Of a stretch of 52,734 bases of DNA, positions 1 through 51,958 are shown one piece after another. The first letter of the stretch is position 1. The number at the start of each line of letters is the position of its first letter. The DNA comes from a virus. The stretch is from the UHGV virus genome UHGV-0124967; one strand, 5' to 3'. The notes under the pieces are model-generated. The model was not told the origin of the DNA. It ran no database searches and was given only the letters and a program-made list of their open reading frames with translations. The translations under genes and the position numbers were made by a program.

Positions 1-1646
1 GTTTCGCTGCTTAACTTACCGTTACTGACTACACATGTGGACCGTTCGGACTTTACCCGCATACCAATAAGCATTTTTTCCAGCCCGGCATTTTCATTTA
101 TTCGTCGGTCTGAACCACCTATATCACAATACGGAAAACCGTCGTACCCACCTGATGAACCAAACCCCATTACGATCCCCGCATCTGCCTGATGCCGGTA
201 TGTGTCAAAAACACGCGGTGCTGCATTTGGCGTTTTATACCAGTTCTTATGTACCTCACAAAGAACCGTAAAAGGAAGATTATAAAGGTTATTCTTGATT
301 GGGACTATCACCATATCGCTTGCCCGCGTTGCTGGTGTCGACCCCGTAACAATAAAAGATGATGCGCCTGCACCAGCCTCAATCTGTGGAGTGGTTACAT
401 CGAGACAATCCCCTGATGCCACCATCTGACCTGTATCCGGAGAATACTGGACTAAACCACCAACCGTATTTTCTGTTGTATTTGCTTTTAATGTAGCCTC
501 AAAAAATATCCAGCCAGTTGCATCATCCTTAACAGACCTTGCTGTAACACGGCTTGTCTGACCTGTCTTGCTAATTATGCGGGTGGTAAGGTTCAGGCTT
601 GCTGTTCCTATTGATGTACTTCCCTCCCCATCATAATGTTCAAATAAAATACGAACGGCGATATTATCAACTTCACTTTTTACCCGACAGGATATAGTTA
701 CATACTTTTCGTCCCCTGAAGTATCAACCCCTCCGGCACTCGAATACAGTCCGATAATGGTATGCGCTTTATTTGTACCAACAATCGAATCCCGTACGAC
801 AAACCGGCCATAATTAAACCCAAAACTATCTGTGCCTGTTTCTGTAACGTCCAGTGAATTTGACTTATTCCACTTCGAAGGGTCTGTACTGTTTATTAAC
901 AGGTTTGTGCGCGTCCCCTCAATCAGTAATCCTTCGCGTTCAAAACGTGGCTCATTAATACCAGCCACAGTTAAAACACCTGATTTGTTAATGTAAGTAG
1001 CAGTGCTTACGCGTGAGAAAGAAACAACTTTATCTGATGATATTGTTTTTTCTTCCCCATTAATGGTTACTTTTTTAGTACCAGGGCCGTAGCCCGTGAT
1101 CATATCGAGAGAATCGTTAAACGGTATCCATACGTCCGGCAGCGGTTGCAAAACATACGCGTAAGGCTGTGCGGTCTGATTGGCGTATTCGTGGGCTTCG
1201 TCTCTGTATGTCTTAGCTGAATCGGCTGCGCTTGTCGCTGTTGTTGCAGCGTTGGTTGCAGTGGTAGCTGATTGTGATGCTAATTTTGAGGCTGAAATCA
1301 CATCTTTGTTGTCGCTAAAAAATTCAACTGCGTCCGCTATTTCTGATTCTTTGCCCTGATAGTAACGCAGTGTTTCGGCGACATCCTGAGCAAGACCATC
1401 CACAGAGATCGAATCTGAAAGCAGGATGCTAAATTTAGTTCCAGCCGGAATAGCCGGACTTGCCGCAGGAGTTACCGACAAACTTGTTGCGCTTTTTACC
1501 TTTGTGATTGAAAAAATCTGCACCGGATCGCTAATGGCAATAAGAGTGCAACCCACTCTGATCAGAGATAATGCGGCGTTGAATTCAGTCCCTGCCCCGG
1601 TAACTGTGTTTCCGCTAACAGCTATAGTGCCTGTTGTGTAAATCAT
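1..1646 (-). CDS. tail fibre protein, N-terminal ~548 codons; 3' end beyond window start
   Basis: Minus-strand frame open from ATG 1646..1644 (GGAG complement at 1655-1658) to position 1, absent from ORF track only because it runs off the edge. Begins MIYTTGTIAVSGNTVTGAGTEF. Lies downstream of J. Confidence 0.7.
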   Translation of the reverse strand, partial: MIYTTGTIAVSGNTVTGAGTEFNAALSLIRVGCTLIAISDPVQIFSITKVKSATSLSVTPAASPAIPAGTKFSILLSDSISVDGLAQDVAETLRYYQGKESEIADAVEFFSDNKDVISASKLASQSATTATNAATTATSAADSAKTYRDEAHEYANQTAQPYAYVLQPLPDVWIPFNDSLDMITGYGPGTKKVTINGEEKTISSDKVVSFSRVSTATYINKSGVLTVAGINEPRFEREGLLIEGTRTNLLINSTDPSKWNKSNSLDVTETGTDSFGFNYGRFVVRDSIVGTNKAHTIIGLYSSAGGVDTSGDEKYVTISCRVKSEVDNIAVRILFEHYDGEGSTSIGTASLNLTTRIISKTGQTSRVTARSVKDDATGWIFFEATLKANTTENTVGGLVQYSPDTGQMVASGDCLDVTTPQIEAGAGASSFIVTGSTPATRASDMVIVPIKNNLYNLPFTVLCEVHKNWYKTPNAAPRVFDTYRHQADAGIVMGFGSSGGYDGFPYCDIGGSDRRINENAGLEKMLIGMRVKSERSTCVVSNGKLSSE

Positions 1647-1843
1647 CGCAATAACTCCGTTTTGTTAATTAACTAAACAATTCTACCATTTTGTGATCTG
1701 TGTTACACTTTGGGCTTATACATAATGTGTTTTTTGATCTATATCAACATACGAAATGATAGCTTCTGCGGTGATTTGCTCATCGGATGGGTGGATCATC
1801 ACGAACAACAAATGACAGTAAAACAAACAGTAAGGTGAATACA

Positions 1844-2089
1844 ATGAAAAAACTAATTGTTGCTTGCATCTTATCAGCTCTGTCTTTTGGTGCTTTTGCT
1901 TCTGTAAATTCGACAGATAAGAGTGATGCTGGCACTGCTCAATATGGTGATACTGGCCTTGATAACCAACGTTCGAGTTATTTCAATACTGACTCATGGA
2001 AAGAAAAACAACTACAAGGTAAAATTATTGACAGTGAATGTAATTTACCTATCCATTTTTCTGGTGTAAATGATGGGTGTAAAAAATAA
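1844..2089 (+). CDS. small secreted protein, 81 aa (tail-region moron), function unknown
   Basis: ATG at 1844 with AAGGTGA 8 nt upstream; MKKLIVACILSALSFGAFA looks like a cleavable signal peptide; two Cys in mature part; opposite strand to flanking tail genes. Confidence 0.55.
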   Translation: MKKLIVACILSALSFGAFASVNSTDKSDAGTAQYGDTGLDNQRSSYFNTDSWKEKQLQGKIIDSECNLPIHFSGVNDGCKK

Positions 2090-2100
2090 AAACAATGCAT

Positions 2101-2130
2101 AAAAAAAACGGGGCTTATGCCCCGTTTTTT
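2101..2130. terminator. bidirectional rho-independent terminator
   Basis: A8-CGGGGC-TTAT-GCCCCG-T6: perfect hairpin flanked by A-run and T-run; follows the plus-strand moron and overlaps the J stop codon. Confidence 0.75.
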
Positions 2131-5100
2131 ATGCTGTCGTTGATGTTCTAAATGATCCGGTGCCTCTTGCTACTATCATTGTTGGAGAATACAACGCGGT
2201 ACAATATGCGTATCCTTTAGATGATGATGTTTGAGGACAATATATTTTCCCGATAATATCTGATGCTTCTAAACCAGAAAAAGCGCATTGCACTGTTAAT
2301 GTGCATCCACCATAAGGCACGTAATATGAAATTGTTTTGTTTTTATCTCCGCAACTAAACGTTACGTTATAAATGGATCTATATTCACCAGACATTAATG
2401 AAATAGTCGCCATAAGCATAACTGATTTCGTCAATGCATTATCCGTGCTGTCTTTATATGTGATGGTTGCGCTATAACTTTCGTTATGCCCAAGCACTCG
2501 ATCTGGACCAACCCCCATGTTAGCAACGTCACCGACAAATGACTTTGCCTCTACTGTACCTTTAAACTTCCCGCTTGTGGCCTGAATCTCACCAGTGAAT
2601 TTACCAGATGTTGCGTACACCGTACCGCGTACAGTGACGTTGTTGAACTCCGCATTGCCGTTTTTATTTAGCATCCAGCCATCCGAACCAGCTTTATAGT
2701 TGGTTGACTGAATTTGCTGCGCAATCTTCGCGGTAGTGATTGATGCGTCTCTGATCCACGCATCACGGATGTAGCAAGCACCGTTAGTAACATAGAACGG
2801 GGTCTGATAGGAGCCACCTGCCGCAGTCATAAGCACGAAACTGTCAACGAGGAAAATACACCGCGATTGAACGTTAGTCCCGCTACCAGTAAGGCCGAGC
2901 GACATTCCTGTAGCGTATTTCATACCGTTTTTATCAGTGGCAATCTTAATTGAATATGACGCATCAACGTTACCTTTGAAGTCAGTCAGTGCTTTTGATG
3001 TCGTTTCTATCGCCGTTGTGTTTCCGTTAATAGTTACTTTCAACTGGTCGATTCTGGTTGACAATGCCTCGTCTGCCGTTGCCATAGCCTGTGACCATTC
3101 CGTGATGCTTGAGTTTACATCGTCGAAAGATGCCGAGATCTGGCCAAATTTTTCCGCGCTTGATGTTTCATGCGTAGAAAGTGCAGTTGACACTTCGGAT
3201 ACTTTCGAATTAATCGTACTGGTAAGCGATGAGTTAAGGCTGCTGATTGCGTCAGTGCGTGCATTCTTCTCATCTGCGATCGCTTTATCCATCCTAGTTA
3301 CGTTGCTTGTCACCTTGCTATCGAGCGTGGAAATTGACGCATTAACCCCGCTAATAGCTTCTGCGCGTGTGCTTGATTCGTCAGCGATAGCTTGATCAAG
3401 ACGGCTAACACTGGCATTTGTGTTATTTTCAAGCGTTGTTAAATCAGCTTTAACCTCTGTTATTGCGTCGCTTCTTGCCTGCGTTTCATCTGATATTGCC
3501 TTATCGAGGCGCTTAACACTGGCGTCAGTTTTCTTGTCAAGCGTTGAGATACTTGCGTTCACGTCGCTGATAGCCTGAGTACGCGCACTTGTTTCGTCTG
3601 CAATTGCCCGATCAAGACGGTTTACGCTGGCGTCAGTTTTCTTGTCAAGATTGCTTATTGAGGCATTTACACCGTTAATAGCTTCAGCGCGAGCGCTGGC
3701 CTCGTCAGCTACTGCGCGTTGCACATTAGAGATCTGACCTTTAAGGTTTGTGTCCATCACATTCATTTCTGCCGTGATGGTTTCCAGTGATTCCGCTGTC
3801 GCTTTTTTCTCTTCAGCGATAACGTTGTCAATGCGGTCAATTTCCGCTTTCGTCTCTGTCCTGCCTTTCTTGTACTGAGCGGTAAGAGTTACGCGAGTGT
3901 TAGTCTGTGCAAGCGAGTTATTAATAAGAGCAAGTGAGGCGTTTTGCAGACTTGCTTTTGCTTGCGCCAGTTCGCTGCCAACTTTTTCGCTAGACACCTC
4001 CAGCGAGTCGATTCTCGACTCATGCTGTCCAATATCATCGGAGTTTTCCTTAACTATTTTATAAAGATCTTCCGTTTCTTTTTTGAGCGTATCAGTATCA
4101 GCTTTTATTGATCCTGTTTCTATGGTTAGGTTGTCAGTAGCAGTTTTAAGGTCATTCGTAGCGCTTTCGATAAGATCAGTGCGGTCGCCTAGATCTTTAA
4201 TGTCACCAACCATTTCTTTAAATTGTTCGGAATTCATTACGTCTTTGGTGACGTAATCGGTAATTTCATCAAAGTTTTCTGTTGGCTTACCTGACGCTTC
4301 CACAAAGTCAGACACACCAAAAGCGTTACGCGCGCGCACATAAACGTAATATGTGTGACCTGTATTCATGCCGCCAAACGTCCACTGATGACCACGCCCG
4401 GTATATTGTGCTTTAGTGGTTATTGATGCCGGATCAGTGATCTGCGTTTCACCTGAGTAATAAAACTCGTAACTGGTATCAGTGGTGAGCATTGTTCTGC
4501 TGATCGGGTAAACTGTAGCCTGGAATACACCGGGAACCCAATTAACGCCAACTGGGGCCGCTGGTGCGCCAATAACCAGATCGACAATGCTTTCCGCACC
4601 CTTCATGCCCGTGTCATTTCTGCCACGAATGCCTAATGAGTAGTTGCCAGCATCAATGCCATAAAAATCATAACTGTAATTCGTGGTTTCGTAGCTTTTA
4701 ACTACAGCGCCTTCGGCGTTATACACGCGAATCTCAAAGGTCAGGCGACGCGTTGTCGTCTGTGTTTCCCATGTTGCGCGACATTGAACCGTTTCAGATC
4801 CAACGTTTAACACCTTCAGATTTTCAATGTTCGGCACGCGGAAGTGATTAAGCGTGTCGTTATTGATCTCGAAGATTGCGCCATTATCGACTTCGGCCTG
4901 CTTATGTGGATCATGCTGTGCGGCCTCGATGGTGTATACGCTGTTATTTTCTGTTTCTGCTACACTGGTGATTCGACATAAAACGGGTTTTGCTGCGTTG
5001 GTTGATACAGCAAAAACAGTGCCGTTACGAATCCACGCCGGGGCGGCTGCAAGGGTGATAATGTTCCCGTTAACTCCGATGATCTGGTGTTTTTTAAATT

Positions 5101-6682
5101 TACCATCGCTATCAAGTAAGCTGATGGTGTCGCCAGCCGCGATATATTCAGAATCAACCTTGTCGACCGTGATCGCTCTGCCATTGTTCGCCACGATGCG
5201 ACCGCCTAAACGAGCGCCTGCGCGATTATTATCGAGGATCTCGATTATATCCCCCGGCGTAAAGTGAATGGCGTCACGGGCCATTTTAAATGTGAATTTT
5301 GACGGCTCGCGTTTCGCTGTTTCGATCAGCCATTTACCAGCGCGGTGCGCTTGCCCGCGTGAAGTGCAACCGAACGCCTCCAACGTGGTTTCGTTATAAC
5401 CATCACGGGCGATTAGTTTATCATCTGCGACATATTCTTTTGATTGCTCCCAGCCGTTTTCAGGGTCAGTCCAGGATACGATCACGGCGTTGTAGCATTC
5501 TGCGCGTGCGATACTTGAACGAGTAAACGCGCCATCAACGACGTTTGCATTTGTGATGGTGGCGATTGGATCTTGTGGCGCATCAATCATCACGGTAAGA
5601 CGTTGTCCGTCCCATAACGCGATACCACGGAACATACCTGCGATGTTATCCAGTAGGTCGCGGGCGCTCATTTGCTCCGTAATGTAAGCGTTAAGCGTCA
5701 TGCGAGGTTCAAGGCCACCATAGCCATCATCAACCAACTGATCGCAGTATTGAGAAAGCACGTACAAAGCGCCATCATCAACATCAATGTAACCAGCATG
5801 TCGAGCAAGTCCAAAGCGCTCGTTTTTAACCAGATACCGGAAAAGCCATGCAGGGTTATTGGTATACGCCTTTTTAAATCCACCAAGCCATAAACCTGAA
5901 TATGTGCGCGTTTCAGGGTTGTAGTTGTCAGGCACATCAACAATCAGGCCGCGAAGGTGATAGGTGCGGGTAGGCGTATCAGTATACTGATCATGGTCAA
6001 TTACGGCGCCAGCTACAGCGGTATGAGGATAAGACAGATTATCATCTATTATTTCGCTGTAACTACTCCACCGCGTATCATTCCGCAATAGATCGCTGTT
6101 GCTGTCTGGTGTTGTGCGACGAACGCGAATATCAAACGGTTTTTCATCCGGCGCTTTAATGATGTGAGCTTCCAGGTATTCACCGCTTTGTTTACCAGGG
6201 CCAATGTGTATGTCTTTAATCGGCGACCACGTAGAAGATGATGACGGTTTAACATCAACCATCAACATGACGGATGTATTACATTGATTGCCCTTTTCAT
6301 CTGACTGAACGAGAGCATCAACACCAAGATTCAACCTGACGCGGGTAACGTTTGGATCTGAAACAGTCCTGATTATTGGTGTGTCGTGAGTTACCTTTGC
6401 GTTGACAATAACGGTTGACTCAATGGCGTTAAAACCATTAATCGGCGATTGGTCAGCCGTGCCGTTGCGCCAGGCTATACTAATCCCCGGAATTGATGTA
6501 TTCCCGTTTGCGTCAGTAACAGGAGTGTCATTAAGCATCACGTCATTCAATGGCGCTTTCTGGTTTACCGGACCGTATATCGGCCCTTCGCTGAGAATAT
6601 CTAAAACACGATAAAACTGTTTGTGATACAGGTTATCGTTCAATAATGTTGGTGTTTTGGCTTTGCCGCCGCCGCTACTCAT
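2129..6682 (-). CDS. J: tail tip / host specificity protein J, 1517 aa, with extended C-terminal region
   Basis: Very large ORF after tail assembly genes I/K/L; AGGAG RBS; N-terminal two-thirds reads like lambda J family; C-terminal third has coiled-coil repeats and a distal domain. Confidence 0.9.
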   Translation of the reverse strand: MSSGGGKAKTPTLLNDNLYHKQFYRVLDILSEGPIYGPVNQKAPLNDVMLNDTPVTDANGNTSIPGISIAWRNGTADQSPINGFNAIESTVIVNAKVTHDTPIIRTVSDPNVTRVRLNLGVDALVQSDEKGNQCNTSVMLMVDVKPSSSSTWSPIKDIHIGPGKQSGEYLEAHIIKAPDEKPFDIRVRRTTPDSNSDLLRNDTRWSSYSEIIDDNLSYPHTAVAGAVIDHDQYTDTPTRTYHLRGLIVDVPDNYNPETRTYSGLWLGGFKKAYTNNPAWLFRYLVKNERFGLARHAGYIDVDDGALYVLSQYCDQLVDDGYGGLEPRMTLNAYITEQMSARDLLDNIAGMFRGIALWDGQRLTVMIDAPQDPIATITNANVVDGAFTRSSIARAECYNAVIVSWTDPENGWEQSKEYVADDKLIARDGYNETTLEAFGCTSRGQAHRAGKWLIETAKREPSKFTFKMARDAIHFTPGDIIEILDNNRAGARLGGRIVANNGRAITVDKVDSEYIAAGDTISLLDSDGKFKKHQIIGVNGNIITLAAAPAWIRNGTVFAVSTNAAKPVLCRITSVAETENNSVYTIEAAQHDPHKQAEVDNGAIFEINNDTLNHFRVPNIENLKVLNVGSETVQCRATWETQTTTRRLTFEIRVYNAEGAVVKSYETTNYSYDFYGIDAGNYSLGIRGRNDTGMKGAESIVDLVIGAPAAPVGVNWVPGVFQATVYPISRTMLTTDTSYEFYYSGETQITDPASITTKAQYTGRGHQWTFGGMNTGHTYYVYVRARNAFGVSDFVEASGKPTENFDEITDYVTKDVMNSEQFKEMVGDIKDLGDRTDLIESATNDLKTATDNLTIETGSIKADTDTLKKETEDLYKIVKENSDDIGQHESRIDSLEVSSEKVGSELAQAKASLQNASLALINNSLAQTNTRVTLTAQYKKGRTETKAEIDRIDNVIAEEKKATAESLETITAEMNVMDTNLKGQISNVQRAVADEASARAEAINGVNASISNLDKKTDASVNRLDRAIADETSARTQAISDVNASISTLDKKTDASVKRLDKAISDETQARSDAITEVKADLTTLENNTNASVSRLDQAIADESSTRAEAISGVNASISTLDSKVTSNVTRMDKAIADEKNARTDAISSLNSSLTSTINSKVSEVSTALSTHETSSAEKFGQISASFDDVNSSITEWSQAMATADEALSTRIDQLKVTINGNTTAIETTSKALTDFKGNVDASYSIKIATDKNGMKYATGMSLGLTGSGTNVQSRCIFLVDSFVLMTAAGGSYQTPFYVTNGACYIRDAWIRDASITTAKIAQQIQSTNYKAGSDGWMLNKNGNAEFNNVTVRGTVYATSGKFTGEIQATSGKFKGTVEAKSFVGDVANMGVGPDRVLGHNESYSATITYKDSTDNALTKSVMLMATISLMSGEYRSIYNVTFSCGDKNKTISYYVPYGGCTLTVQCAFSGLEASDIIGKIYCPQTSSSKGYAYCTALYSPTMIVARGTGSFRTSTTA
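3200..3730 (-). repeat. about five tandem ~35-codon coiled-coil repeats inside J
   Basis: Protein repeats AIADETSARTQAISDVNASISTLDKKTDASVKRLDK and variants; the DNA repeats are visible by eye. Coordinates approximate. Confidence 0.6.
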
Positions 6683-43238: not shown

Positions 43239-43275
43239 TGCAGACAAGGTAAGGCCATACTTGCAAAGACGCAAG
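43237..43275. promoter_or_regulatory. candidate operator palindromes
   Basis: CTTGCAGACAAG (43237-43248) and CTTGCAAAGACGCAAG (43260-43275); similar GCAAG/CTTGC half-sites at 42161-42183. Confidence 0.35.
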
Positions 43276-43456
43276 GAAAAAGATAACGGAAGGCACAAAA
43301 AGGCACTTACCTTAAGCTCTTTAAAAATCCGGTGTCGCTGCGAAGCGAAAAACAAATATCACGCAACGGCGGGATCTGTTGAGCGGTCAGTCACTGCTAT
43401 CTAATGCTAATGGGATGCCCGCCCGCGCGTTCACTCTAACCATAGGAGAAAACACG

Positions 43457-43714: not shown

Positions 43715-43717
43715 TCT

Positions 43718-44770
43718 ATGAAGTGGTTTAAGCATGACAGCGATGCGAACCGCGATGAAAAACTTCAAAACGTTTTGTTAGATTATGGCCTGGAAGGGTA
43801 CGGGCTTTATTGGTATTGCCTAGAGCTAATAACTTATGACGTAGATCAGCACAATCTAACTTTTGACCTACGACATGACGCAAGAATAATTGCGCGAAAC
43901 GTCGGATCTACTGAAAAACGTATAGAAGAAATGATGAAATACTTCATCGAAATTGGTTTGTTTGAATGTTCTCAAGGCCACATAACTTGTTTAAAGTTAT
44001 TGAAAAGGCTGGACCAATCAATGACTTCTAAAAGCGCTTACAGGGCCGCCATAAACACAGCGAAGGAGCAATTAAAATTAGAAAAGTTAATCAATCCAAC
44101 ACAAAAAGGTCATGATAGGGTCATGACCGGGTCAGGAAAGGGTCATGAATTAGAATTAGAAGTAGAAAAAGAAAGAGAAAAAGATATATACACTTCGTGT
44201 ATTGTCGAAAATGAACAAAAAATGGTCAATCAGGATGGCGTAAACGAAGCGGCATTGCGTTGCCTTGCCTTCTACAACGACAAGGCAGGATGCAAATGTC
44301 GTGATGCTAAGCCATTCGTAGAACTACTGACAGAAACAAAAACACGTAAAGCGTATACGGAGAATGAGATCACGTTAGTAATTGAGTGGGCTTTAACCCA
44401 ATGGCGTAGCCGTGGTGGAGTACCTAAGCCTATCAACATTTGCCGGGTAACTAAATTTGATGGGTATCTGACTGATGCTGAACAATGGCGCAAACTGTCA
44501 GCCACTGTAAACGCTGCCGACGTGGTGGAAGCATTTAACAGCACGTTTGACGGCCTGTTACCACCTGCCGAACTGGATCGGGATCTTGAACGCAAGATCT
44601 ATGCGTTCACTGACTACCTGAAAGACAAAAGCATTAACGGCTTTGTCGCCTACTTCGAAACGTTCAAAAACACGGCTTCAGATTTTTACTTCGGCGATGG
44701 CTTCACCGCGACACTTGATTTCCTGCTTAAACCAAAAACGCTACGTGATACGCGCGCTGGCGTTCTTTGA
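43718..44770 (+). CDS. putative replication initiator / replisome organiser with internal origin
   Basis: 350 aa; GGAGGG RBS; iteron array lies inside the coding sequence, as in lambda O-type initiators. Confidence 0.6.
   Translation: MKWFKHDSDANRDEKLQNVLLDYGLEGYGLYWYCLELITYDVDQHNLTFDLRHDARIIARNVGSTEKRIEEMMKYFIEIGLFECSQGHITCLKLLKRLDQSMTSKSAYRAAINTAKEQLKLEKLINPTQKGHDRVMTGSGKGHELELEVEKEREKDIYTSCIVENEQKMVNQDGVNEAALRCLAFYNDKAGCKCRDAKPFVELLTETKTRKAYTENEITLVIEWALTQWRSRGGVPKPINICRVTKFDGYLTDAEQWRKLSATVNAADVVEAFNSTFDGLLPPAELDRDLERKIYAFTDYLKDKSINGFVAYFETFKNTASDFYFGDGFTATLDFLLKPKTLRDTRAGVL
44108..44200. repeat. putative origin of replication: four iterons plus AT-rich region
   Basis: GGTCATGA 44108-44115, GGGTCATGA 44118-44126, GGGTCAGGA 44129-44137, GGGTCATGA 44140-44148 (about 11-bp phasing), then an A/T-rich run. 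Confidence 0.55.
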
Positions 44771-44903
44771 CCAATCACGATCCGCAAAAATCCAAAATTA
44801 CCCACAAAACAACCTCACCAGCGAGCTAAATCGCATGTGGTGCTACACTTGCTTACCTTTTTGCGATTAGCTCGTTATAGAGCGTTACAGAGAGGATTTT
44901 AAA

Positions 44904-45005
44904 ATGGACGGTAAACACGTTTTCGCCCTGGCTTTTGCCATCGCTGCGGCAATCGATGTTAACGTCGCCTTGTTCGGCGGTCTGTACCTGCTAATCAATC
45001 CATAA
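44904..45005 (+). CDS. putative small membrane peptide, 33 aa
   Basis: ATG 44904 with GAGGAT RBS; MDGKHVFALAFAIAAAIDVNVALFGGLYLLINP. Confidence 0.3.
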   Translation: MDGKHVFALAFAIAAAIDVNVALFGGLYLLINP

Positions 45006-45145
45006 CCTACCTACCATTCTGTAAATCGAAAATTAGCCACCTGATGGCGCCTCTGACGCAATAAGACACTGCAACCCGTGCAAATGGGTTACGCGGTGGT
45101 TTTTTGCATTGTAGCGCGTCTGAGGCGTTTTAAGGAGTTGGAACG

Positions 45146-45646
45146 ATGCGCAAGTTAACACACGAAGAACACATCACAGATATAGCCAAAGTTAACACTT
45201 ATGTTGAAGTATTGGGAAAAATTAAGAACCATAGAGATAAAGTCCCGTGCCGCTGCAAGATCTGTAGTCATGAGTGGTCTGCCAGGCCTTGCAACCTTAA
45301 AAGCGGGTACGGCTGTCCAAAATGCGCGAAATACGGTTTCCTTCGTCATGAGTATGGCAAACTTTACATCATGGTTGATGATCTGGAAGTGCCTACACAA
45401 ATGAAAATTGGGGTAAGTGTTCAGGAAAATAAACGAAGAAACGAGATATTAAAAAGCGCACATAAAGCAGGCGTTAGAATTCCTAATTTGCATATCGTGA
45501 AAACGTTAGAAGGGCCAACCGAAAATATACATGAACTAGAAAACACGATGCATAAGGCTTTTAGCAATTATAAAATTAACTTTCCTGTAAAATTTGATGG
45601 TAGCAATGAGTTTTTTATTACAGGCCGGAAGTATTCGACATGGTAG
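45146..45646 (+). CDS. zinc-ribbon plus T5orf172-like (GIY-YIG-like) domain protein
   Basis: 166 aa; AAGGAG RBS; CRCKICSHEW...CPKCAKYG, then KLYIMVDD...MKIGVSVQENKRRNEIL...NEFF. Confidence 0.55.
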   Translation: MRKLTHEEHITDIAKVNTYVEVLGKIKNHRDKVPCRCKICSHEWSARPCNLKSGYGCPKCAKYGFLRHEYGKLYIMVDDLEVPTQMKIGVSVQENKRRNEILKSAHKAGVRIPNLHIVKTLEGPTENIHELENTMHKAFSNYKINFPVKFDGSNEFFITGRKYSTW

Positions 45647-45715
45647 AAGAAGCATTTAAAGAGATTGTTTGCTGCCAATGAATATACAAAATGTAAAACC
45701 TGAGGATATAACATT

Positions 45716-46834
45716 ATGTGTCAAAGAAAGATTAGTGATGAACAGCTAATCACTGAACATAACAACGGTCTAACGTATAAACAGATCGCCGAAAAATACG
45801 GAATGGCAAAACGCAACGTCGAACGCCTGGGCGCACGGTTGGCGAAACGCGGTTTAATATCCACGCGTCGCGCGCCGGGTTTTGGCGTCAATGGTGAGTC
45901 ATTGCTCGTCGATAAGGATGGCAATGTGATTATGCGCTGGATTAAAACAGCCCGTGATCGCGATGAAATGGAAAGGCTAATGCAATCTGCTTGTGACGCC
46001 TTCACGGAAGAAATACCCCGCGCGGAGTCCGTGCCAGTGCCGGAAATTGATTTCCAAAAAAGCCTGGCCCTTTATCCGGTATTTGATCTGCATATCGGGG
46101 CGCTTGCTCATAAAGCTGAATGCGGCGATAGCTACGACACCGGGATCGCTGAGCGCGTGCTAAATGATTTCTTCGACTACGCGGTAGGCGCTGCACCGAT
46201 GTCTGAAAAAGCTGTTTTGCTGTTAGGAGGGGATGTGCTCCACACTGACGGACTGTTACCAGTGACGCCATCAAGTAATCACGTTTTGGATTGTGATTCA
46301 CGCTACGCAAAACTTGTTTACGTGGCGATCCGGTCGGTCAGGCGTGCTGTAGGTAAGATGTTGTTGAATCATAAGGATGTAGAAATTCAGGTGTTATCAG
46401 GTAATCACGACCAGTCAGGAATGATCTGGCTACGTGCGGCGCTGAAGGCTTTTTACGAAGATGAACCGCGCGTTACTGTTGATGTGTCACCTGCCATCGT
46501 CCACCACACACAGTACGGCAAAACATTCCTTGCATATCATCACGGTCATACTATCAAAAAACCTGACAATTTGTTGTCTGCCTGCGTCTCTGACTGGCGA
46601 GAAGACTTTGGCAAGTCTGCGGCGGTTTACGCTCATTGCGGGCACTGGCATCATCAACGGCTAATTGAATCATCGTTAGGCGTTGTTGAGTATCACGGCA
46701 CGTTAGCGGGTAAAGACGCTTACTCAACTAATGGCGGCTGGCGGTCACGTCGTATGGCAGCGGTGATTATTTACAGCCAGGATTATGGTGAGATCGGGCG
46801 CTTTGTTTATTACCCTGAATATTCCATTTTGTAA
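45716..46834 (+). CDS. HTH plus calcineurin-like metallophosphoesterase domain protein
   Basis: 372 aa; N-terminal HTH; phosphoesterase motifs DLHIG, GGDVLHTDG, GNHD, HHGH, GHWHH. Confidence 0.6.
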   Translation: MCQRKISDEQLITEHNNGLTYKQIAEKYGMAKRNVERLGARLAKRGLISTRRAPGFGVNGESLLVDKDGNVIMRWIKTARDRDEMERLMQSACDAFTEEIPRAESVPVPEIDFQKSLALYPVFDLHIGALAHKAECGDSYDTGIAERVLNDFFDYAVGAAPMSEKAVLLLGGDVLHTDGLLPVTPSSNHVLDCDSRYAKLVYVAIRSVRRAVGKMLLNHKDVEIQVLSGNHDQSGMIWLRAALKAFYEDEPRVTVDVSPAIVHHTQYGKTFLAYHHGHTIKKPDNLLSACVSDWREDFGKSAAVYAHCGHWHHQRLIESSLGVVEYHGTLAGKDAYSTNGGWRSRRMAAVIIYSQDYGEIGRFVYYPEYSIL

Positions 46835-46852
46835 ACCGGAGGTAATGACATA

Positions 46853-48274
46853 ATGGTAACTGAGCAGATAAACTCACTACTGCAGGAACGTGAAGCGTCA
46901 GTTATCGGCGGGCTGCTATTAGGCGGCCTCACTCCTAACGCGCAAGATGTTCTCGCTACGCTAGATCCTGAAGTGTTCACTATTCCGCTGTATAAGCGGG
47001 CGTTTGAAATTATCCGGGCGCAAGCCAGAAACAGGAATCTTATCGACGCGTTATTGGTTGGTGATGAGATTGGTAATGAAAACTTTGTACCGCTAATGCA
47101 AACGGCGCGATCGTGCCCTTCTGCTGCCAACCTGAAGGGATATGCACAGCTACTACGTGAAGAGCACCAGCGGCGGCAGATGTTGGAACTCATCGACGAT
47201 ATGCGCTACAAACTGGAAACTGGGACACTTGAGGTCGTCAAAGAGACGATGAAAGATTTTGATTCCCGGTATTCAAAATTAAAGGTAACAAAAGATCAGA
47301 TTATCCCGGTGCTGTTGCGCGATGCTGTCCAGGAATACACGGAAGTGCTAAGTAAACGCATGGAGTGTGGCGTGAACTCTGACAACATCAAAACAGGGAT
47401 TGACCCACTCGACGAAATGTTAGGCGGCATTAACGCTACTGATCTGGTGCTTATCGCCGGACGCCCAGGGTCTGGTAAATCGGCGTTGGCGTTGGCAATT
47501 GCCCGCGCGGCTGCTGAACGCCAATACCCTGGCGGAGAAGGTCAGCGGGTCGGCGTTTTGTTGTTCACGCTTGAAATGTCGCTCGATCAGATGACTGAAC
47601 GCGCTATCGCTGGCGCAGGGAACTTGTCAACGGATTGCTTACGTAATCCGGTAAAACTGGATGACGAAGGATGGGCGCACGTTGCCCAGGGAATGAACGC
47701 ACTTGCTGATCTCGATGTGTGGATTGTTGATGCATCACAGTTAACTGTCGAGGAAATACGCGCCACAACTGAACGAATGAAGCAGGATTATCCCAACCTG
47801 GGTATGGTAATGATTGACTACATCGGGTTAATGAAGCTGGCTAAGGCAGAACGTCACGATCTCGCTGTAGGGCAATTGTCATGGTCGTTGAAGATGATGG
47901 CGAAAGAATTGCGCGTACCAGTGTTGGCACTGGCGCAATTATCCCGCCGCGTTGAGGAACGACCAAACAAGCGCCCGAACAATTCTGATCTGCGTGATTC
48001 CGGTAATCTTGAACAGGACGCAGACCGGATCATCATGGTCTACCGCGACGGGTACTATGATGAACAGTCTGTTGCCCGCGAATATATGGAGATCATTGTT
48101 TCGAAAAACCGTCACGGGAAAACGGGGACTGTTTACCAGCGGTTTGACGACAACGGCAACATCTTACCATGCGACCAGGCCCGCGCGGCGTCAGCTTGCA
48201 TCCAGTCAATGCAACAACGTCCGTCTGCAAGCCGATTCTCACCACGAAACAACCAGAATAACGCATCTTTTTAA
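46853..48274 (+). CDS. replicative DNA helicase (DnaB family)
   Basis: 473 aa; Walker A GRPGSGKS, LFTLEMS, VMIDYIGLM, LAQLSRRVEERPNKRPNNSDLRDSGNLEQDADRIIMVYRD. Confidence 0.9.
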   Translation: MVTEQINSLLQEREASVIGGLLLGGLTPNAQDVLATLDPEVFTIPLYKRAFEIIRAQARNRNLIDALLVGDEIGNENFVPLMQTARSCPSAANLKGYAQLLREEHQRRQMLELIDDMRYKLETGTLEVVKETMKDFDSRYSKLKVTKDQIIPVLLRDAVQEYTEVLSKRMECGVNSDNIKTGIDPLDEMLGGINATDLVLIAGRPGSGKSALALAIARAAAERQYPGGEGQRVGVLLFTLEMSLDQMTERAIAGAGNLSTDCLRNPVKLDDEGWAHVAQGMNALADLDVWIVDASQLTVEEIRATTERMKQDYPNLGMVMIDYIGLMKLAKAERHDLAVGQLSWSLKMMAKELRVPVLALAQLSRRVEERPNKRPNNSDLRDSGNLEQDADRIIMVYRDGYYDEQSVAREYMEIIVSKNRHGKTGTVYQRFDDNGNILPCDQARAASACIQSMQQRPSASRFSPRNNQNNASF

Positions 48275-48352
48275 TTAACTTGAGAAACGGCTTACCGGAA
48301 AGTTTACCGCTTTCTGGTGGCTGTTTTCGCGCTTAAATCGAGGCTAGAAACA

Positions 48353-48880
48353 ATGAAAACCATTTATAAAACACAAATAGCGAAATTTTTACAGGATGCC
48401 ACTGTTGCTGGTGAAGCAACAATTATTAAATCTATTCCAGGTCCTGAAATCGAGATCGTTAATAGTTTGCGTGATATGGTTTCTGACGGCGCTATTATTC
48501 CTGTTGAAATGGGAGTGCCGCGATTATCATATTGCTTGAAGTCAGTGCGCGAAATGGCAATAAAAAAAATCATGCCTTTATTTCTGAATAGTAGCGATTA
48601 TTTTTCTGCTGAGGATGTTAAAAAAGAATTAAAACTCGAAATAAAACAGAGGAAAATTTGTCGGGTTTTAAAGATGTTAGGCAGTGAAAATTTATTAACA
48701 GTTAATAAATTTGATGGGAAATACTTTTTTAGATCAGCTCGCTTCTATGGTTGTTCGAGTCCTATCGTATTTGAATTTAACAACCGCCTGAATGAATACC
48801 GGAAAAATAACGGCCTGCTGCCGGATAAACCAGTATTTGAGATCGAAAAACTTAACGGTGAAACGGGGTTGGAATTATGA
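48353..48880 (+). CDS. hypothetical protein, 175 aa, AT-rich gene
   Basis: First ATG 48353 (track ORF starts 48317); conspicuously AT-rich compared with flanking genes. Confidence 0.5.
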   Translation: MKTIYKTQIAKFLQDATVAGEATIIKSIPGPEIEIVNSLRDMVSDGAIIPVEMGVPRLSYCLKSVREMAIKKIMPLFLNSSDYFSAEDVKKELKLEIKQRKICRVLKMLGSENLLTVNKFDGKYFFRSARFYGCSSPIVFEFNNRLNEYRKNNGLLPDKPVFEIEKLNGETGLEL

Positions 48881-49083
48881 GACTGGTAATCTTTTATTCA
48901 GTTGAAACGTTTATTGACGATACGCGCGTTTATTATCCGTGGGAAGGATACGACGCAAAGGTGTATACACCGCCACTGATGCGGAAATATAAACACGTAA
49001 AATTTAACCGGGTTTTTGTACCAATGCGTGATGCACTGCAGGCGCTGCGCGGTGAATTACGAAACACAATGCGTATTGTGTGA
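48877..49083 (+). CDS. hypothetical protein, 68 aa
   Basis: ATGA overlap with previous gene. Confidence 0.45.
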   Translation: MRLVIFYSVETFIDDTRVYYPWEGYDAKVYTPPLMRKYKHVKFNRVFVPMRDALQALRGELRNTMRIV

Positions 49084-49092
49084 GGTGGCGTT

Positions 49093-49218
49093 ATGGATAA
49101 GGAATTAGATTTAACAGTTGAAGACCTGAGCACGATTGCGGAATACATGCGCGACGATGATCCTGATCGTCCTGTCGTCGTTGATATGAAAAAACTAAAA
49201 AAACGACCATATGGCTAG
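49093..49218 (+). CDS. hypothetical acidic protein, 41 aa
   Basis: ATG 49093 with GAGGTGG RBS; below track cutoff. Confidence 0.35.
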   Translation: MDKELDLTVEDLSTIAEYMRDDDPDRPVVVDMKKLKKRPYG

Positions 49219-49287
49219 TTCAAGGCTCATTTCTTTATGGGCGATCATGTATGCGCGGGCGCAATGGAAAAATAGCAACGGTGTATT

Positions 49288-49719
49288 ATGAGGCAAATTA
49301 GATTTGAGATAGTCAACGACGCCGTGAAAGAAAATGCTATCAGGCAGATAAGGGAAATACAGCCTGATAGCAAAAGCCCGCTGATAATCACCATCCAGGA
49401 GAAAACCCGCTCGCTAAGCCAAAATAGCCTTCTATGGGCGTTGCTAACCGACATTAGTGATCAGGTTAATTGGTACGGTAAGAGGCTGTCGCCGGAAGAC
49501 TGGAAGGCGGTATTCACTGCCGGGCTTAAGAAATATGGCGTTGTCCCTAACCTGGACAAATCAGGCTTTGTTGTGCTGGGAACATCAACCAGCCGGATGA
49601 GTAAAGCGGAATTTAGCGAATTAATCGAACTGATCTACTCGTTCGGTGCTGAACATAATGTTCAATGGTCAGGTGATACGAAATTAAACGAGGAATTTAT
49701 AAAACGCTGGGGGCAATAA
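49288..49719 (+). CDS. ninB: recombination protein NinB
   Basis: 143 aa; close to lambda NinB as recalled (TIQEKTRSLSQNSLLWALL...SPEDWKAVFTAGLKK...PNLDKSGFVVLGTSTSRMSKAEFSELIEL). Confidence 0.85.
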   Translation: MRQIRFEIVNDAVKENAIRQIREIQPDSKSPLIITIQEKTRSLSQNSLLWALLTDISDQVNWYGKRLSPEDWKAVFTAGLKKYGVVPNLDKSGFVVLGTSTSRMSKAEFSELIELIYSFGAEHNVQWSGDTKLNEEFIKRWGQ

Positions 49720-49895
49720 TGGCTAGTTATTACATGGCTAAACCTACAGGCATTTTGTATAAGGTTGATGGCGAATACGTTTATTACTTTCACAACCAGG
49801 CGCGTGAGTGGCGATTGTGTCACGCGCACTTTAAGCACGAAATAGAAAATCATCCTGAATATTTTATTAAGGTTGACAATGTAACAGTGGCGTAA
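49719..49895 (+). CDS. hypothetical protein, 58 aa
   Basis: ATG overlaps NinB stop (TAATG). Confidence 0.4.
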   Translation: MASYYMAKPTGILYKVDGEYVYYFHNQAREWRLCHAHFKHEIENHPEYFIKVDNVTVA

Positions 49896-49910
49896 TTGAG
49901 GATAAACAAA

Positions 49911-50573
49911 ATGAGTGAATCAAGAGTAATTGGCATAATTCGTCATCGCACTAACCCTGATGTTTACCCATCGTTTGAGGTAACAACATGCCGCACGGAA
50001 TACAATTTTGGATCATGCTATTTAGTTGGCGTCCGCGCTGATACTCGCGGCACTTATTCAGTTATGGCGGCAAGCTGGAAATTTGATAAATACGCTAATT
50101 TATCTAACAAGGATGATGACGGCATGAATAAAGAAAGTGAAATTATTGATGGATTAATCGAAGATGAACGCCGTGACTGCGAAACACAACAAGAAAAAAC
50201 GGAATGGGTCGTAGGTGATAAGCCTCCTGTTAATGTGTGGCTTGATTGCGTAGGTTTGACAAGTGGAACTATTCTTGATGTCGTCAGGTTTAAATATGTT
50301 GGTGATAAATGGGCTATATGTGAAAGCAAGGAAGATTTTTGTGGCGAGAGGCCGCTATCATGGACAACATGCTCTTTCAAGCTGCATATAGATCCGAAAG
50401 AAAAGGCACTTGCTGAAATCGCGCTTGCACTTGCTGTCAATGTTATGGGTGAAGACGCGGCAAAAGAGATTGACTTTAACCACGACAATGATTTTTCGTG
50501 CGATTATCGCAATATGGCGCAAGCTATTATTGATGGATGTATCGGACACGTTGAATACACGGGGGATAAATAA
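49911..50573 (+). CDS. hypothetical protein, 220 aa
   Basis: ATG 49911 with GAGGAT RBS (track ORF from 49896); Cys-containing, acidic. Confidence 0.5.
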   Translation: MSESRVIGIIRHRTNPDVYPSFEVTTCRTEYNFGSCYLVGVRADTRGTYSVMAASWKFDKYANLSNKDDDGMNKESEIIDGLIEDERRDCETQQEKTEWVVGDKPPVNVWLDCVGLTSGTILDVVRFKYVGDKWAICESKEDFCGERPLSWTTCSFKLHIDPKEKALAEIALALAVNVMGEDAAKEIDFNHDNDFSCDYRNMAQAIIDGCIGHVEYTGDK

Positions 50574-50803
50574 TGGATAAAACCGGGACAATCCTTCTTA
50601 GTCGCCCTGCCATCTGCCGGATGCTTGGGGGAATTAGCAGGGGAACGTTTTACTTATGGCGTAAAAAATGGGAACGGAACGGAACTCCGTTCCCCGACCC
50701 GGTTGACGTACTTGGGACCGGGCGTGGCGTTATGTACCGCTATCAGGACGTAATGCAGTTCTTTGATCGGATTGGTTTAACGTCAGCCAAAGATAACACA
50801 TAA
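50573..50803 (+). CDS. AlpA-family HTH regulator / putative excisionase
   Basis: 76 aa; LGGISRGTFYLWRKKWERNGTPFPDPVDVLGTGRGVMYRYQDVMQFF pattern; convergent with integrase 3' end. Confidence 0.65.
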   Translation: MDKTGTILLSRPAICRMLGGISRGTFYLWRKKWERNGTPFPDPVDVLGTGRGVMYRYQDVMQFFDRIGLTSAKDNT

Positions 50804-51958
50804 TCAGCAAACTTATTTAGTGCCTCCTTTTGTTCATCAAGATAATCATATTTGTCGTACACCGCCAGTATTCCCCTTAATGAATGGCCTAAGATCTTTT
50901 CTGCAATATGTACCGGAACACCTATAGCTGAAAGGTGTGTCCGGCACGTCCTGCGGAGGTCGTGACAGGACCATGATTTACCGCCCATCCTTTTACGCAC
51001 GAATATTGCAGCTACTTTTATCACTGATACGTTTACTGGCCTGTTGCCGCCGTTAATCACTGGCGGGAATACATAATCATACTCATGGGAGGTTAAAACC
51101 TCCCTGAGCATTTTTATCGACAAGTCAGATAATCCCCGCCTGATTTCACTTCTTGTCTTCGCCACCGCCGCCGGAACGGTCCATACACCGTTGTCCAGAT
51201 CTAGGTGTTCCCTTCTCATTTTCTGCAATTCACCAACCCTGCACCCGGTTAGCAATAATAGCTTTAAGGCTATTTTGTTCTGCGGATAGATCTGCGAACT
51301 GTCTACCGTGCGCCAGAAGTGGCCTATCTCCTCACATGAAAGGTAACGCTCCCCCCACCGCATAATGCTCGCCAACGTCAGCTACACGGATATTGTTTAT
51401 CGCCGTGTTAGTCATTAGCCCACGCCTGATTGCGCTGTTAACGATGATTTTCATTCGCTTCAATATCAAACCAGCCGTAACCGCGTGACCCGCCGCAGTG
51501 ATCTCGCCAAATATATCCATCCACTGTTTTGTCGTTACGTCGTCAGCTATGTAGTCGCCGTACTTGTTGACTACGTGGCGCATCAATGCGCTTTTGACTT
51601 CTTTATATGCCACCAGCTTAATGACGTTCGGCAGGGATAGATAGTCTTCCACTACGTCGGATATAGATCGCTTGCCCTGCTCAAAGGCTATGGCCTGCTT
51701 TACGCACAGTGCCGGATTCTTCCCTTTCGTAAGCAACTCCCTGTATTCAGACACCGCATAGCGGGCGTCTTTCAGACTCATTTTCCCGTATTCACCGATC
51801 TTCATTCGCACTGGCTTACCGTTGAATCTGTAACGGTACTGGAAAGTAATTTTCCCTTTTGGGTTTATCCTGGCTGACAGGCCATCACGATCAGCTATCT
51901 CGCTTGGACCGTCGTATGGCTTGTTGGCGATGGCCCTTAACCTGGTATCCGTAAGCAT
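50743..51958 (-). pseudogene. tyrosine integrase disrupted by a frameshift
   Basis: Two overlapping frames (51332..51958 N-terminal, 50743..51375 C-terminal with HDLRR, LGHS, AVYDKYDY motifs). They meet at a C6 run (51351-51356); deleting one base would give continuous ...GEHYAVGERYLSCEEIGHFW.... Could be a real pseudogene or a sequencing error. Confidence 0.7.

Follow-up and report, generated by a model that had tools for sequence, protein, structure and literature searches.

The analysed stretch of DNA (the window) comprises 52,734 nucleotides, in which the genes were called with Pfam and PHROGs profile matches. A tail-tip fibre gene of 597 aa bridges the two ends: its 5′ part occupies positions 1–1646 on the minus strand, and it continues in frame at 52584–52734. 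The window is therefore a circular permutation, and positions 1–51958 are essentially the whole genome. The strand distribution is as first described in the initial annotation: Erf, SSB, the methyltransferases, NinG, RusA, Q, and the lysis, head and tail genes are located on the minus strand, and the replication genes and NinB are located on the plus strand, in an arm that runs up to the convergent integrase. The minus arm had been said to run away from CI, but CI itself is its first gene. The GC skew changes its sign at ~43 kb and ~51 kb, as predicted by the two-arm strand layout.

The gene of the CI-type repressor, a Rep021 homologue, is located at 42503–43150 on the minus strand, and its product carries Pfam HTH_3 and Peptidase_S24 domains. 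It is 93% identical over 198 aa to Rep021, the mEp021 repressor, and shares 57% identity with P22 c2 in its C-terminal domain. In the intergenic region between CI and the replication genes, a putative promoter, TTGATC-16 nt-TAAACT, can be read from the sequence (43211–43238, plus strand); its −35 and −10 hexamers are kept in mEp021, mEp554 and the LP-26 prophage, with a partly variable spacer. Downstream lies a candidate nutL site (43316–43348, plus strand), which consists of the boxA GCTCTTTAAAAATCCGG (43316–43332) and the boxB hairpin TCGCT-GCGA-AGCGA (43335–43348). Its sequence is invariant among four genomes, and its position agrees with the published nutL (PMC11893012). The Cro position is occupied by a gene (43457–43714, plus strand) for an 85-aa winged-helix protein, which is similar to the N-terminal domain found in O-like replication initiators, matches phrog_4617 'replication initiation protein' (E=2.9e-22) and is only 32% identical to mEp021 gp14. 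Pfam and PHROGs searches of the window found no Cro/C1-type HTH besides CI, and this gene has no such match, so the earlier observation that no Cro-like gene is evident holds. The phage may have a functional Cro analogue.

The replication arm (43718–50803, plus strand) has the order and strand of mEp021 gp13 to gp02. It contains the genes of the O-like initiator (43718–44770), a Zn-ribbon/T5orf172 protein (45146–45646), a metallophosphoesterase-like protein (45716–46834), DnaB (46853–48274) and NinB (49288–49719), followed by a hypothetical gene (49896–50573) and a small HTH gene (50573–50803), all on the plus strand. The last of these extends into the 3′ end of the integrase gene; the label 'AlpA-like', which it had received, is not borne out, as it matches generic HTH models only (Pfam HTH_23, phrog_4745). 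The tyrosine integrase (50743–51958, minus strand) is convergent with the replication arm and consists of two ORFs, with the arm-binding domain in ORF 51332–51958 and the catalytic domain in ORF 50743–51375. The frameshift corresponds to one extra G in the G run at 51351–51356 (G5 to G6). Apart from this change, the integrase/att region shares 99.7% identity with its counterpart in the E. coli LP-26-E1-261 prophage, which has an intact integrase and is inserted in dgcM (ydaM). The attP region (52030–52266) contains a homology break at ~52144/52145, which appears both against the integrated prophage and against the two ends of the mEp021 record. The integrase/att type of the window thus matches a dgcM-inserted prophage, while the window itself is in the excised form and carries the +1 frameshift. 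The integrases of the group belong to tyrosine types I–IV and direct integration at ydaM (dgcM), abgT or mppA, with dgcM/ydaM as the main site (PMC11893012).

On the minus strand, the CI gene is followed by a terminator hairpin, t1 (42480–42497), which corresponds to mEp021 TERM_1, and by a promoter-like site, TTGACT-17 nt-TATATT (42351–42379), the putative equivalent of lambda PL. This consensus match is the top promoter match in a scan of 26–44 kb, agreeing at 10 of 12 positions, and across four genomes its hexamers are kept and its spacer is variable. Just upstream of gp17 lies a candidate nutR1 site (42059–42095), with the boxA-like sequence GCTCATTAACAATCTGG at 42079–42095 and the hairpin GCCGC-TGGAAGT-GCGGC at 42059–42075. 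It is present in all four compared genomes; a second boxA-like copy at 42292–42308, which is an alternative nutR1, is absent from mEp554, and the site at 42059–42095 is taken as the candidate. The Gp17 homologue (41713–42003, minus strand) is a predicted N-like antiterminator (phrog_271 'N-like') with the arginine-rich motif NARERRRIKRENERK and is 93% identical to mEp021 Gp17. Residues R17, R19, R20, R21 and R24 are present, and arginines 17, 19, 20 and 24 are conserved in the mEpimmI group (PMC11893012).

The early recombination and accessory genes extend over 34755–41682 on the minus strand and include Erf (40922–41563), SSB (40503–40922), an Abc-like gene, small ORFs, Ipe, Dam (36493–37032), a DUF6378 protein, a membrane protein and a second methyltransferase (34755–35516). 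The methyltransferase gene is followed by a long terminator hairpin, t4 (34707–34742, minus strand), by a promoter-like site, TTGTTT-16 nt-TATACT (34672–34699, minus strand), whose hexamers are kept and whose spacer is variable in mEp021 and mEp554, and by a candidate nutR2 site (34624–34656, minus strand). The latter consists of the boxA GCTCTTTAAAAATCCGG at 34640–34656, identical to the nutL copy, and a boxB hairpin at 34624–34637. Three copies of the 17-mer boxA are present in the window (0.03 expected), at the published nut positions. Owing to their small size, the boxB hairpins do not stand out by folding energy (z about 0). Next comes the NinF-NinG-RusA-Q block (32494–34595, minus strand), with NinG at 33799–34494, RusA at 33401–33802 and the Q-like late antiterminator (Pfam Antiterm PF03589) at 32494–33216. 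Q is 34–45% identical to lambda Q and P22 gene 23. A terminator-like site is located inside ninG (34356–34374, minus strand). The nin genes are therefore divided between the arms, as had been recognised earlier, with NinB on the plus strand and NinF, NinG and RusA on the minus strand.

The candidate for the late promoter, TTGTAG-17 nt-TAAAAT, is located at 27057–27085 on the minus strand and is immediately followed by a −10-like TAACAAT; the terminator t5 lies at 27011–27029 (minus strand, hairpin z-score −2.3). This block is conserved from ~−40 onward, the sequence upstream is diverged, and the holin start codon lies at 26987. The lysis, packaging, head and tail genes, from holin to J, occupy 2129–26987 on the minus strand: holin, lysozyme and Rz (25837–26987), TerS, TerL and portal (21173–24696), the major capsid protein (17467–18531), the tape measure protein (10908–13250) and J (2129–6682). 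The plus strand had been described as holding only replication genes, NinB and the AlpA-like gene; this description is too narrow, as four plus-strand accessory islands lie in the tail module, at 1426–2089, at 8737–9517 with a KilAC-like gene, at 10394–10821 with a ParE-like gene, and at 13378–14367 with a VasI-like gene.

A further feature of the window is the strong over-representation of a 13-nt asymmetric motif, CCATTTTGTAWAC, with 11 copies where 0.27 would be expected. The copies are mostly intergenic, some overlap early promoter-like sites, and many form inverted pairs. Examples are the copy at 43225–43237, within the promoter-like site 43211–43238, the copy at 42381–42393, which abuts the −35 hexamer of the PL-like site, and the inverted pair on the flanks of t4 (34741–34753, plus; 34673–34685, minus). 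The 'stoperators' of mycobacteriophage L5 are 13-bp asymmetric repressor sites scattered across the genome. The window motif resembles them in its length, asymmetry, over-representation, mostly intergenic location and presence at early promoter-like sites. It differs in its many inverted pairs and in an orientation bias relative to local transcription of only about 12 to 6; in addition, unlike L5 gp71, the repressor of the window is of the LexA/CI type and presumably dimeric in action.

The whole-genome comparison relates this layout to the mEp021 group. Blastn against mEp021 gives collinearity over the full length in a single orientation, with no inversion, at ~85% nucleotide identity. Matches in the window were found for 73 of the 82 mEp021 proteins, with the order kept and the strands consistently flipped, and the annotations of mEp021 and mEp554 show an identical layout. 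Seven phage isolates of the mEpimmI group (mEp021, mEp010, mEp013, mEp044, mEp515, mEp554 and MagusPhagus) are collinear with the window at ~85–87% identity over 70–84% of the query. Among 5,426 complete E. coli genomes, 35 carry a prophage related to the window, and in 33 of these one collinear place spans at least 80% of window 14.4–39.4 kb.

Negrete-Mendez et al. 2025 described 48 mEpimmI genomes with a 'conserved genome architecture', high synteny, ~50 core genes in synteny and a GC content of ~46% (PMC11893012); that of the window is 45.8%. An N-like antiterminator Gp17, three nut sites and a Q-like protein belong to the described group architecture, and the group repressors, ~96% similar to each other, are of the Rep021 type, with a Cro/C1 HTH and an S24 domain (PMC11893012). 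In mEp021, according to the literature, the repressor gives immunity and Gp17 works at three nut sites together with the Nus factors of the host; the group is reported to depend on these factors, to have siphovirus morphology and not to recombine with lambda. The window shares with the group the gene order and relative strand of the whole genome, a Rep021-type repressor that would confer the corresponding immunity, and three candidate nut sites at conserved positions, kept in mEp021 and mEp554. Also shared are the Q-like protein, Erf/SSB, the split nin genes, the lambda-like J/I/K/L tail tip and accessory islands within the tail module; the att/integrase region resembles that of prophages in dgcM. 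The nut sites of the mEp021 group were reportedly defined by Valencia-Toxqui et al. 2023. Of the mEp021 genes, both HNH genes, gp05 (an N4/N6 methyltransferase) and gp81 (a lipoprotein) are absent from the window. The window further differs from mEp021 in its origin-specificity module at 43451–44249 (the wHTH protein and the initiator N-terminus), in its insertions at 27.1–29.6 kb, 30.75–32.5 kb and 13.35–14.4 kb, and in the frameshifted integrase. The window is thus very probably the complete, excised-form circular genome of a temperate E. coli siphophage of the mEpimmI (mEp021-like) group with the gene order that is normal for it.

The lambda-type order is int-xis-recombination-N-cI on one side and cro-cII-O-P-nin-Q-lysis-structural on the other, where cro is the first gene divergent from cI. 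Comparison by tblastx and protein-level dot plots reveals that Erf, CI, DnaB and NinB have the order and strand of P22, and that, relative to P22 and lambda, the other strand and the other side carry NinG, Q and the late genes. The lambda-type position of Q, downstream of the replication genes, was not found in the window by tblastx. The initial annotation was thus right that the layout departs from canonical lambda and P22, with the late module co-directional with the recombination genes. These comparisons support a formal inversion that covers the entire early block, with the recombination genes, N, CI, the replication genes and NinB, and that has a putative breakpoint inside the nin region, between NinB and NinF. 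Such an inversion would split the nin region and put Q downstream of the N/recombination side, not of the replication side. The regulatory components resemble those of lambdoid phages: a CI/LexA-type repressor between divergent early promoters, N-type and Q-type antitermination suggested by the Gp17 homologue, boxA/boxB nut-like sites and Q, the Nus dependence known from the literature, and a promoter-proximal terminator before the lysis genes. The Erf, DnaB, NinB, NinG, Q, Rz and J/I/K/L proteins are homologous, with 30–60% identity. The differences include three nut sites in the mEp021 group instead of two, no cro between the promoter and the nut site of the replication arm, and the reversed integrase, convergent with this arm.

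Two explanations would make this layout exceptional. An assembly artefact, in the form of a chimeric or inverted join near 42–44 kb or 50.7–52 kb, would be expected where the arms stand head to head (~43.2 kb) and tail to tail (~50.8 kb), and the homopolymer frameshift in the integrase hints at an imperfect sequence. Both junctions are, however, spanned by continuous alignments to mEp021 (window 40689–43451 and 49288–52030) and to an E. coli chromosome (window 40001–52144 at 94.5%), the overlap of the integrase and the small HTH gene is also annotated in mEp021 and the LP-26 prophage, and 33 independent chromosomes are collinear over 14.4–39.4 kb. The junctions are continuous and conserved in mEp021, mEp554 and an E. 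coli prophage, with no sign of misassembly, and the artefact can be given practically no credence. The other explanation, a recent mosaic inversion of a lambda-like ancestor in this phage alone, fits the dot plots against P22 and lambda, where the early block has the reverse orientation with respect to ninG, Q and the late genes, and the identical boxA 17-mers of nutL and nutR2 are consistent with the duplication of a promoter-nut module. It is very improbable, considering that the layout is common to seven isolates, 35 E. coli genomes and the 48 published genomes (PMC11893012), and that the proteins shared with lambda and P22 are only 30–60% identical. Because of this distribution in all relatives examined and this level of identity, any inversion would be old and group-wide. 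Of the mosaic rearrangement proposed in the initial annotation, the formal inversion relative to lambda and P22 is supported, but the layout it called unusual is a common, described architecture, shared by mEp021 and the mEpimmI group.

The CI-controlled immunity region is the starting point of two divergent arms. The plus arm proceeds from nutL through the replication genes and NinB to the small HTH gene, convergent with the integrase. The minus arm follows the order of CI, Gp17, recombination and accessory genes, NinF/NinG/RusA/Q, and the lysis and structural genes; in the proposed transcription model, it is probably a series of co-directional transcription units rather than a single operon. 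The first unit would extend from the PL-like promoter (42351–42379) through nutR1 and gp17 to the methyltransferase gene and terminator t4. The second would begin at the promoter-like site 34672–34699 and continue through nutR2 into ninF-ninG-rusA-Q; a unit with its own promoter would explain nutR2, and hence the third nut site of the group. In the third, Q would be loaded at the lambda-type late promoter with its pause element and t5 (27011–27085), allowing the expression of the lysis and virion genes. The promoter candidates were identified by consensus matches and phylogenetic footprints among only three to four closely related genomes, and the −35 hexamers TTGATC, TTGTTT and TTGTAG are weak. 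Alternatively, a single, very long operon antiterminated by Gp17 could span the minus arm, from the PL-like promoter as far as the tail fibres: the genes of this arm are all co-directional, and Gp17 with nutR1 could in principle take the RNA polymerase past all terminators. Such an operon is unlikely. A Q-type antiterminator is kept, a conserved promoter with a pause-like element and a terminator directly precedes the holin gene, and the tail operon is interrupted by opposite-strand gene islands; moreover, just past the strong terminator t4, a second nut site is accompanied by a conserved promoter-like site, and for a polymerase that had been modified before, this further nut site would be superfluous. 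The statement that Q, lysis and structural genes follow the leftward operon is therefore correct for gene position and probably not for transcription as one unit.

The phage probably represents a species distinct from the mEp021-group isolates, because it shares ~85% nucleotide identity with them and at most ~94.5% with the E. coli prophages found; the intergenomic similarity to mEp021 is 0.68, as a rough blastn estimate. If the integrase frameshift is real, a phage with such a split integrase may be deficient in integration.

The organisation of the window is unusual when compared with lambda, but not when compared with its own group of phages. With each half of the window as query, megablast matches among phage records the Enterobacteria phages mEp021, mEp554, mEp515, mEp044, mEp010 and mEp013 as well as MagusPhagus, and the isolates of the mEp021 group align on the opposite strand with ~85–87% identity over 70–84% of the query. 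The closest sequences found are E. coli prophages, with 92–94.5% identity. The GC content is 45.8%, the intergenomic similarity to mEp021 is roughly estimated at 0.68, and the window is probably a new species-level member of the mEp021/mEpimmI group of temperate E. coli phages. The tRNA and Rfam scans of the window give no matches. The 597-aa tail-tip fibre gene spans both window ends in frame (1–1646 and 52584–52734, minus strand), and at 52144/52145 there is a break in the homology, both with the two termini of the mEp021 record and with an E. coli prophage in its integrated state. Together, the in-frame join and the position of this break identify the window as a complete, circularly permuted phage genome with an intact attP. 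The alternative, an integrated prophage with host flanks, is ruled out by the same join and the intact attP. The C-terminal part of the tail-tip fibre resembles the side tail fibre genes of the unrelated coliphages ev243, PhiR49_2 and Dru_SM1 (90–98% nucleotide identity), which suggests that the receptor-binding module may have been swapped.

The mosaic rearrangement proposed in the initial annotation can be considered at two levels, as an event or assembly artefact specific to this genome and as an older difference from lambda. At the first level, whole-window blastn places positions 1318–52266 on one unbroken anti-parallel diagonal with the complete mEp021 genome, with no inverted or transposed segment. 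By tblastn, 73 of the 82 annotated mEp021 proteins match the window in the same order, with all strands consistently flipped, and the annotations of mEp021 and mEp554 have the same layout. Of 5,426 complete E. coli genomes, 35 carry a relative, and 33 of these cover at least 80% of the 14.4–39.4 kb region in a single collinear place. The two junctions named for an assembly check, at 42–44 kb and 50.7–52 kb, are continuous and conserved in independent assemblies. Misassembly and a window-specific inversion are therefore both ruled out by collinearity with mEp021, mEp554, seven isolates and 33–35 E. coli chromosomes. The mEpimmI group itself was described by Negrete-Mendez et al. 2025 (PMC11893012). 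According to the searched sections of that work, its members have a CI-like repressor (Rep021), a Q-like protein and an N-like antiterminator, Gp17, which works at nutL, nutR1 and nutR2, and their main integration site is ydaM (dgcM). The CI of the window shares 93% identity with Rep021, and its Gp17, which keeps arginines 17, 19, 20, 21 and 24, shares 93% with that of mEp021. Across the integrase and att region, the identity to a prophage seated in dgcM is 99.7%. These identities, together with the architecture described in that work, make the layout a common and already described one, which is the outcome that the initial annotation itself gave as refuting its proposal.

At the second level, protein-level dot plots (tblastx) against P22 and lambda reveal a formal rearrangement. 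Erf, the CI C-terminal domain, DnaB and NinB correspond to erf, c2, gene 12 and ninB of P22, in the same order and on the same strands, but NinG and Q, the counterparts of ninG and gene 23, have the reverse orientation and are found at the other flank of the early block. The same picture is obtained with lambda, where cI and NinB are set against NinG, Q, Rz and J/I/K/L. In formal terms, inverting the entire early block (recombination, N, CI, replication and NinB) of lambda or P22 yields the layout of the window. One breakpoint falls between NinB and NinF, inside the nin region, and the other at the distal end of the PL-type operon; the orientation of the integrase module is independent of the inversion. 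This difference is an old, group-wide feature, since the layout is common to every relative and the shared proteins are only 30–60% identical to their lambda and P22 counterparts. The interpretation given in the initial annotation therefore holds only in this formal, evolutionary sense, and not as a property of this particular genome. The searched sections of PMC11893012 do not describe the layout as an inversion.

The accompanying description of the genes is largely correct, as profile searches confirm the listed identities and strands. The minus strand encodes CI, the N-like Gp17, Erf, SSB, Dam, a second methyltransferase, NinG, RusA, Q, holin, lysozyme and Rz, followed by TerS, TerL, portal, capsid, tail tube, tape measure, M, L, K, I and J. 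The plus strand encodes an O-like initiator, a Zn-ribbon/T5orf172 protein, a metallophosphoesterase-like protein, DnaB, NinB and a small HTH protein. The GC skew is negative to ~43 kb, positive at ~43–51 kb and negative again beyond. Several details require correction. The minus arm does not run away from CI, which is itself the head of that arm, and the plus strand is not limited to the replication genes, NinB and an AlpA-like gene, as four accessory islands also sit inside the tail module. Plus-strand islands in the tail operon (10394–10821, 9269–9517 and 13378–14037) hold ParE-like, KilAC and VasI-like genes; the ParE-like toxin gene has a small ORF upstream, the KilAC-domain protein is short and antirepressor-like, and the VasI-like protein is of the type VI secretion associated kind. 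The label AlpA-like for 50573–50803 is not borne out, as this small HTH gene gives generic HTH matches only; it overlaps the 3′ end of the convergent integrase gene. The integrase gene (50743–51958, minus strand) is not whole. An extra G in a G5 run (51351–51356) splits it into two ORFs; apart from this base, it shares 99.7% identity with the uninterrupted integrase gene of the prophage in E. coli LP-26-E1-261 (the LP-26 prophage). Either a sequencing error in the homopolymer or a genuine pseudogene would account for the frameshift. A further run difference, C7 versus C9, lies just upstream of the integrase start.

Other local differences are found along the minus strand. In the homologue of mEp021 gp26 (38008–38223), codon 46 is an in-frame stop instead of the Trp codon of mEp021. 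A strongly hydrophobic 37-aa ORF, MNMIKIAALAAGVAIAVAYLAASLYIAVAIIKLITNM, lies at 39860–39973, where mEp021 has TERM_2 annotated; the mEp021 terminator t2 is not recognisable at the homologous window position, and there is no clear intrinsic terminator around this ORF. The RefSeq annotation of E. coli prophage regions homologous to 14401–39400 lists an anti-CBASS protein Acb1 family protein, and Pfam scans of the larger unknown ORFs of the window give no match of this type.

In mEp021, the CI-type repressor has been shown to give immunity, and Gp17 to antiterminate at three nut sites together with host Nus factors; promoters and operators are not discussed in the searched sections of PMC11893012. 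The boxA 17-mer GCWCTTTAAAAATCMGG occurs three times in the window against 0.03 expected. The plus-strand copy at 43316 has a GNRA-loop hairpin behind it, with the replication genes next in line, which makes it the nutL candidate; a promoter-like TTGATC-16 nt-TAAACT can be read 5′ of it. An identical boxA at 34656 on the minus strand, followed by a small hairpin and then by ninF-ninG-rusA-Q, is the candidate for nutR2. It lies directly downstream of the strongest terminator hairpin of the region (t4, 34707–34742), and 5′ of it is a promoter-like TTGTTT-16 nt-TATACT on the same strand, whose hexamers are conserved while the spacer bases vary in mEp021 and mEp554. The best sigma-70 match within 26–44 kb is a PL-like TTGACT-17 nt-TATATT (42351–42379, minus strand), located between the post-CI terminator and gp17. 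Downstream of it, a minus-strand boxA-like site with a hairpin (42059–42095), conserved in all four genomes compared, is probably nutR1. A fourth boxA-like 17-mer, GCACTTTAAAAATCAGG, is found at 42292–42308 (minus strand), in the interval that separates the PL-like promoter from the gp16 homologue. mEp021 and the LP-26 prophage also have this copy, and mEp554 has lost it through a ~210-nt deletion.

The late genes have a candidate promoter of their own. Directly 5′ of the holin gene, on the minus strand, TTGTAG-17 nt-TAAAAT is followed by TAACAAT and a hairpin, in a block which is conserved from about −40 onward and whose upstream sequence has diverged. The hairpin (t5, 27011–27029) is strong and has a T run (z = −2.3). 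The TAACAAT is a −10-like element placed as the pause-inducing AACGAT of lambda PR′. In lambda, Q directly precedes PR′; in the window, ~5.4 kb of small ORFs (27100–32490, minus strand) separate Q from the late promoter candidate. Little or no nucleotide similarity to mEp021 is found at 27.1–29.6 kb, where only 27905–28081 aligns, and at 30.75–32.5 kb.

Each nut site thus has a conserved promoter-like sequence upstream, a putative promoter, and judging from these assignments the minus arm would be not a single operon but a series of three or more units read in the same direction. Transcription would lead from the PL-like promoter through nutR1 into gp17 and the genes for recombination and accessory functions, from the second promoter-like site through nutR2 into nin-Q, and from the Q-dependent late promoter into the lysis and then the virion genes. 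On the plus strand, the promoter-like site would lead through nutL into the replication genes. Such promoter-like sequences offer a simple reason for the third nut site of the group, which after the inversion would belong to a separate promoter-nut module before nin-Q.

No Cro-like gene was evident in the initial annotation, and none is recognisable here, although a functional analogue may lie elsewhere in the genome. The small early ORFs give no Pfam/NCBIfam HTH_3/Cro match other than CI, and the stretch from the plus-strand promoter-like site to nutL has no ORF with a ribosome-binding site. Downstream of nutL, the first gene (43457–43714) matches the winged-helix domain at the N-terminus of O-like replication initiators (phrog_4617, E = 2.9e-22) and no Cro/C1 model, and its product shares only 32% amino acid identity with mEp021 gp14. 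The segment 43451–44249, which holds this gene and the initiator N-terminus, is without nucleotide similarity to mEp021, unlike the conserved neighbouring CI gene and intergenic region. This difference argues that the gene would be part of an origin-specificity module, which looks like it has been replaced, rather than a Cro sharing operators with CI. Two CI operator candidates were rejected. The palindrome CTTGC-N6-GCAAG (43260–43275) is conserved but unrepeated in the immunity region and is not enriched (3 matches against 2.0 expected), and the palindrome ATTTTAAG...CTTAAAAT in OR is not conserved in mEp554.

A 13-nt motif, CCATTTTGTAWAC, is over-represented, with 11 copies at no more than one mismatch (six of them perfect) against 0.27 expected. 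The copies lie at 8710–8722, 10311–10323, 10702–10714, 13290–13302, 21349–21361, 28603–28615, 34673–34685, 34741–34753, 42381–42393, 43225–43237 and 46824–46836, nine of them intergenic or at gene ends. mEp021, mEp554 and the LP-26 prophage keep copies at the corresponding positions, with variable flanks, and in lambda there are no more than two weak matches. The promoter-like sites 5′ of nutL and nutR2 each overlap a copy, and one copy abuts the PL-like −35 hexamer. Another lies 17 nt before the dnaB start codon, abutting the ribosome-binding site, and others precede the tape measure, M and L genes or adjoin accessory islands. Inverted pairs 29–68 bp apart are frequent, for example on both sides of t4.

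The role of the motif can be sought in promoters or in protein binding. As a −35 hexamer it fails, since most copies lack a −10 at 16–18 nt, and as a plain −10 element it fits some copies, such as those at nutL and nutR2, but not others. Before M, a perfect TATAAT follows 4 nt after the motif; its position relative to plausible −10 hexamers is not constant, and this variable spacing leaves the choice between a promoter element and a protein-binding site undecided. In a comparison by eye, none of the consensus sequences of the host factors IHF, CRP, LexA, TyrR, CpxR and PhoP fits. An unlikely proposal is that the motif is the site of a phage regulator, possibly the CI-type repressor, acting as a dispersed operator of the 'stoperator' kind that would control early, accessory and tail promoters in a Cro-less coliphage, with the third promoter-nut module compensating for the inverted early region.

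The operon order as originally reported matters little, because it is a hallmark of a group already described experimentally and genomically. Three points are nevertheless worth recording: the whole early block is formally inverted when set against lambda and P22, one breakpoint falling within the nin region; a conserved promoter-like sequence stands before each nut site; and the group seems to operate a lambda-like switch in which no Cro can be recognised. Only the 13-nt motif and the putative promoter-nut modules possibly go beyond the published description, and the motif provides a concrete, testable lead on the regulation of mEpimmI phages.
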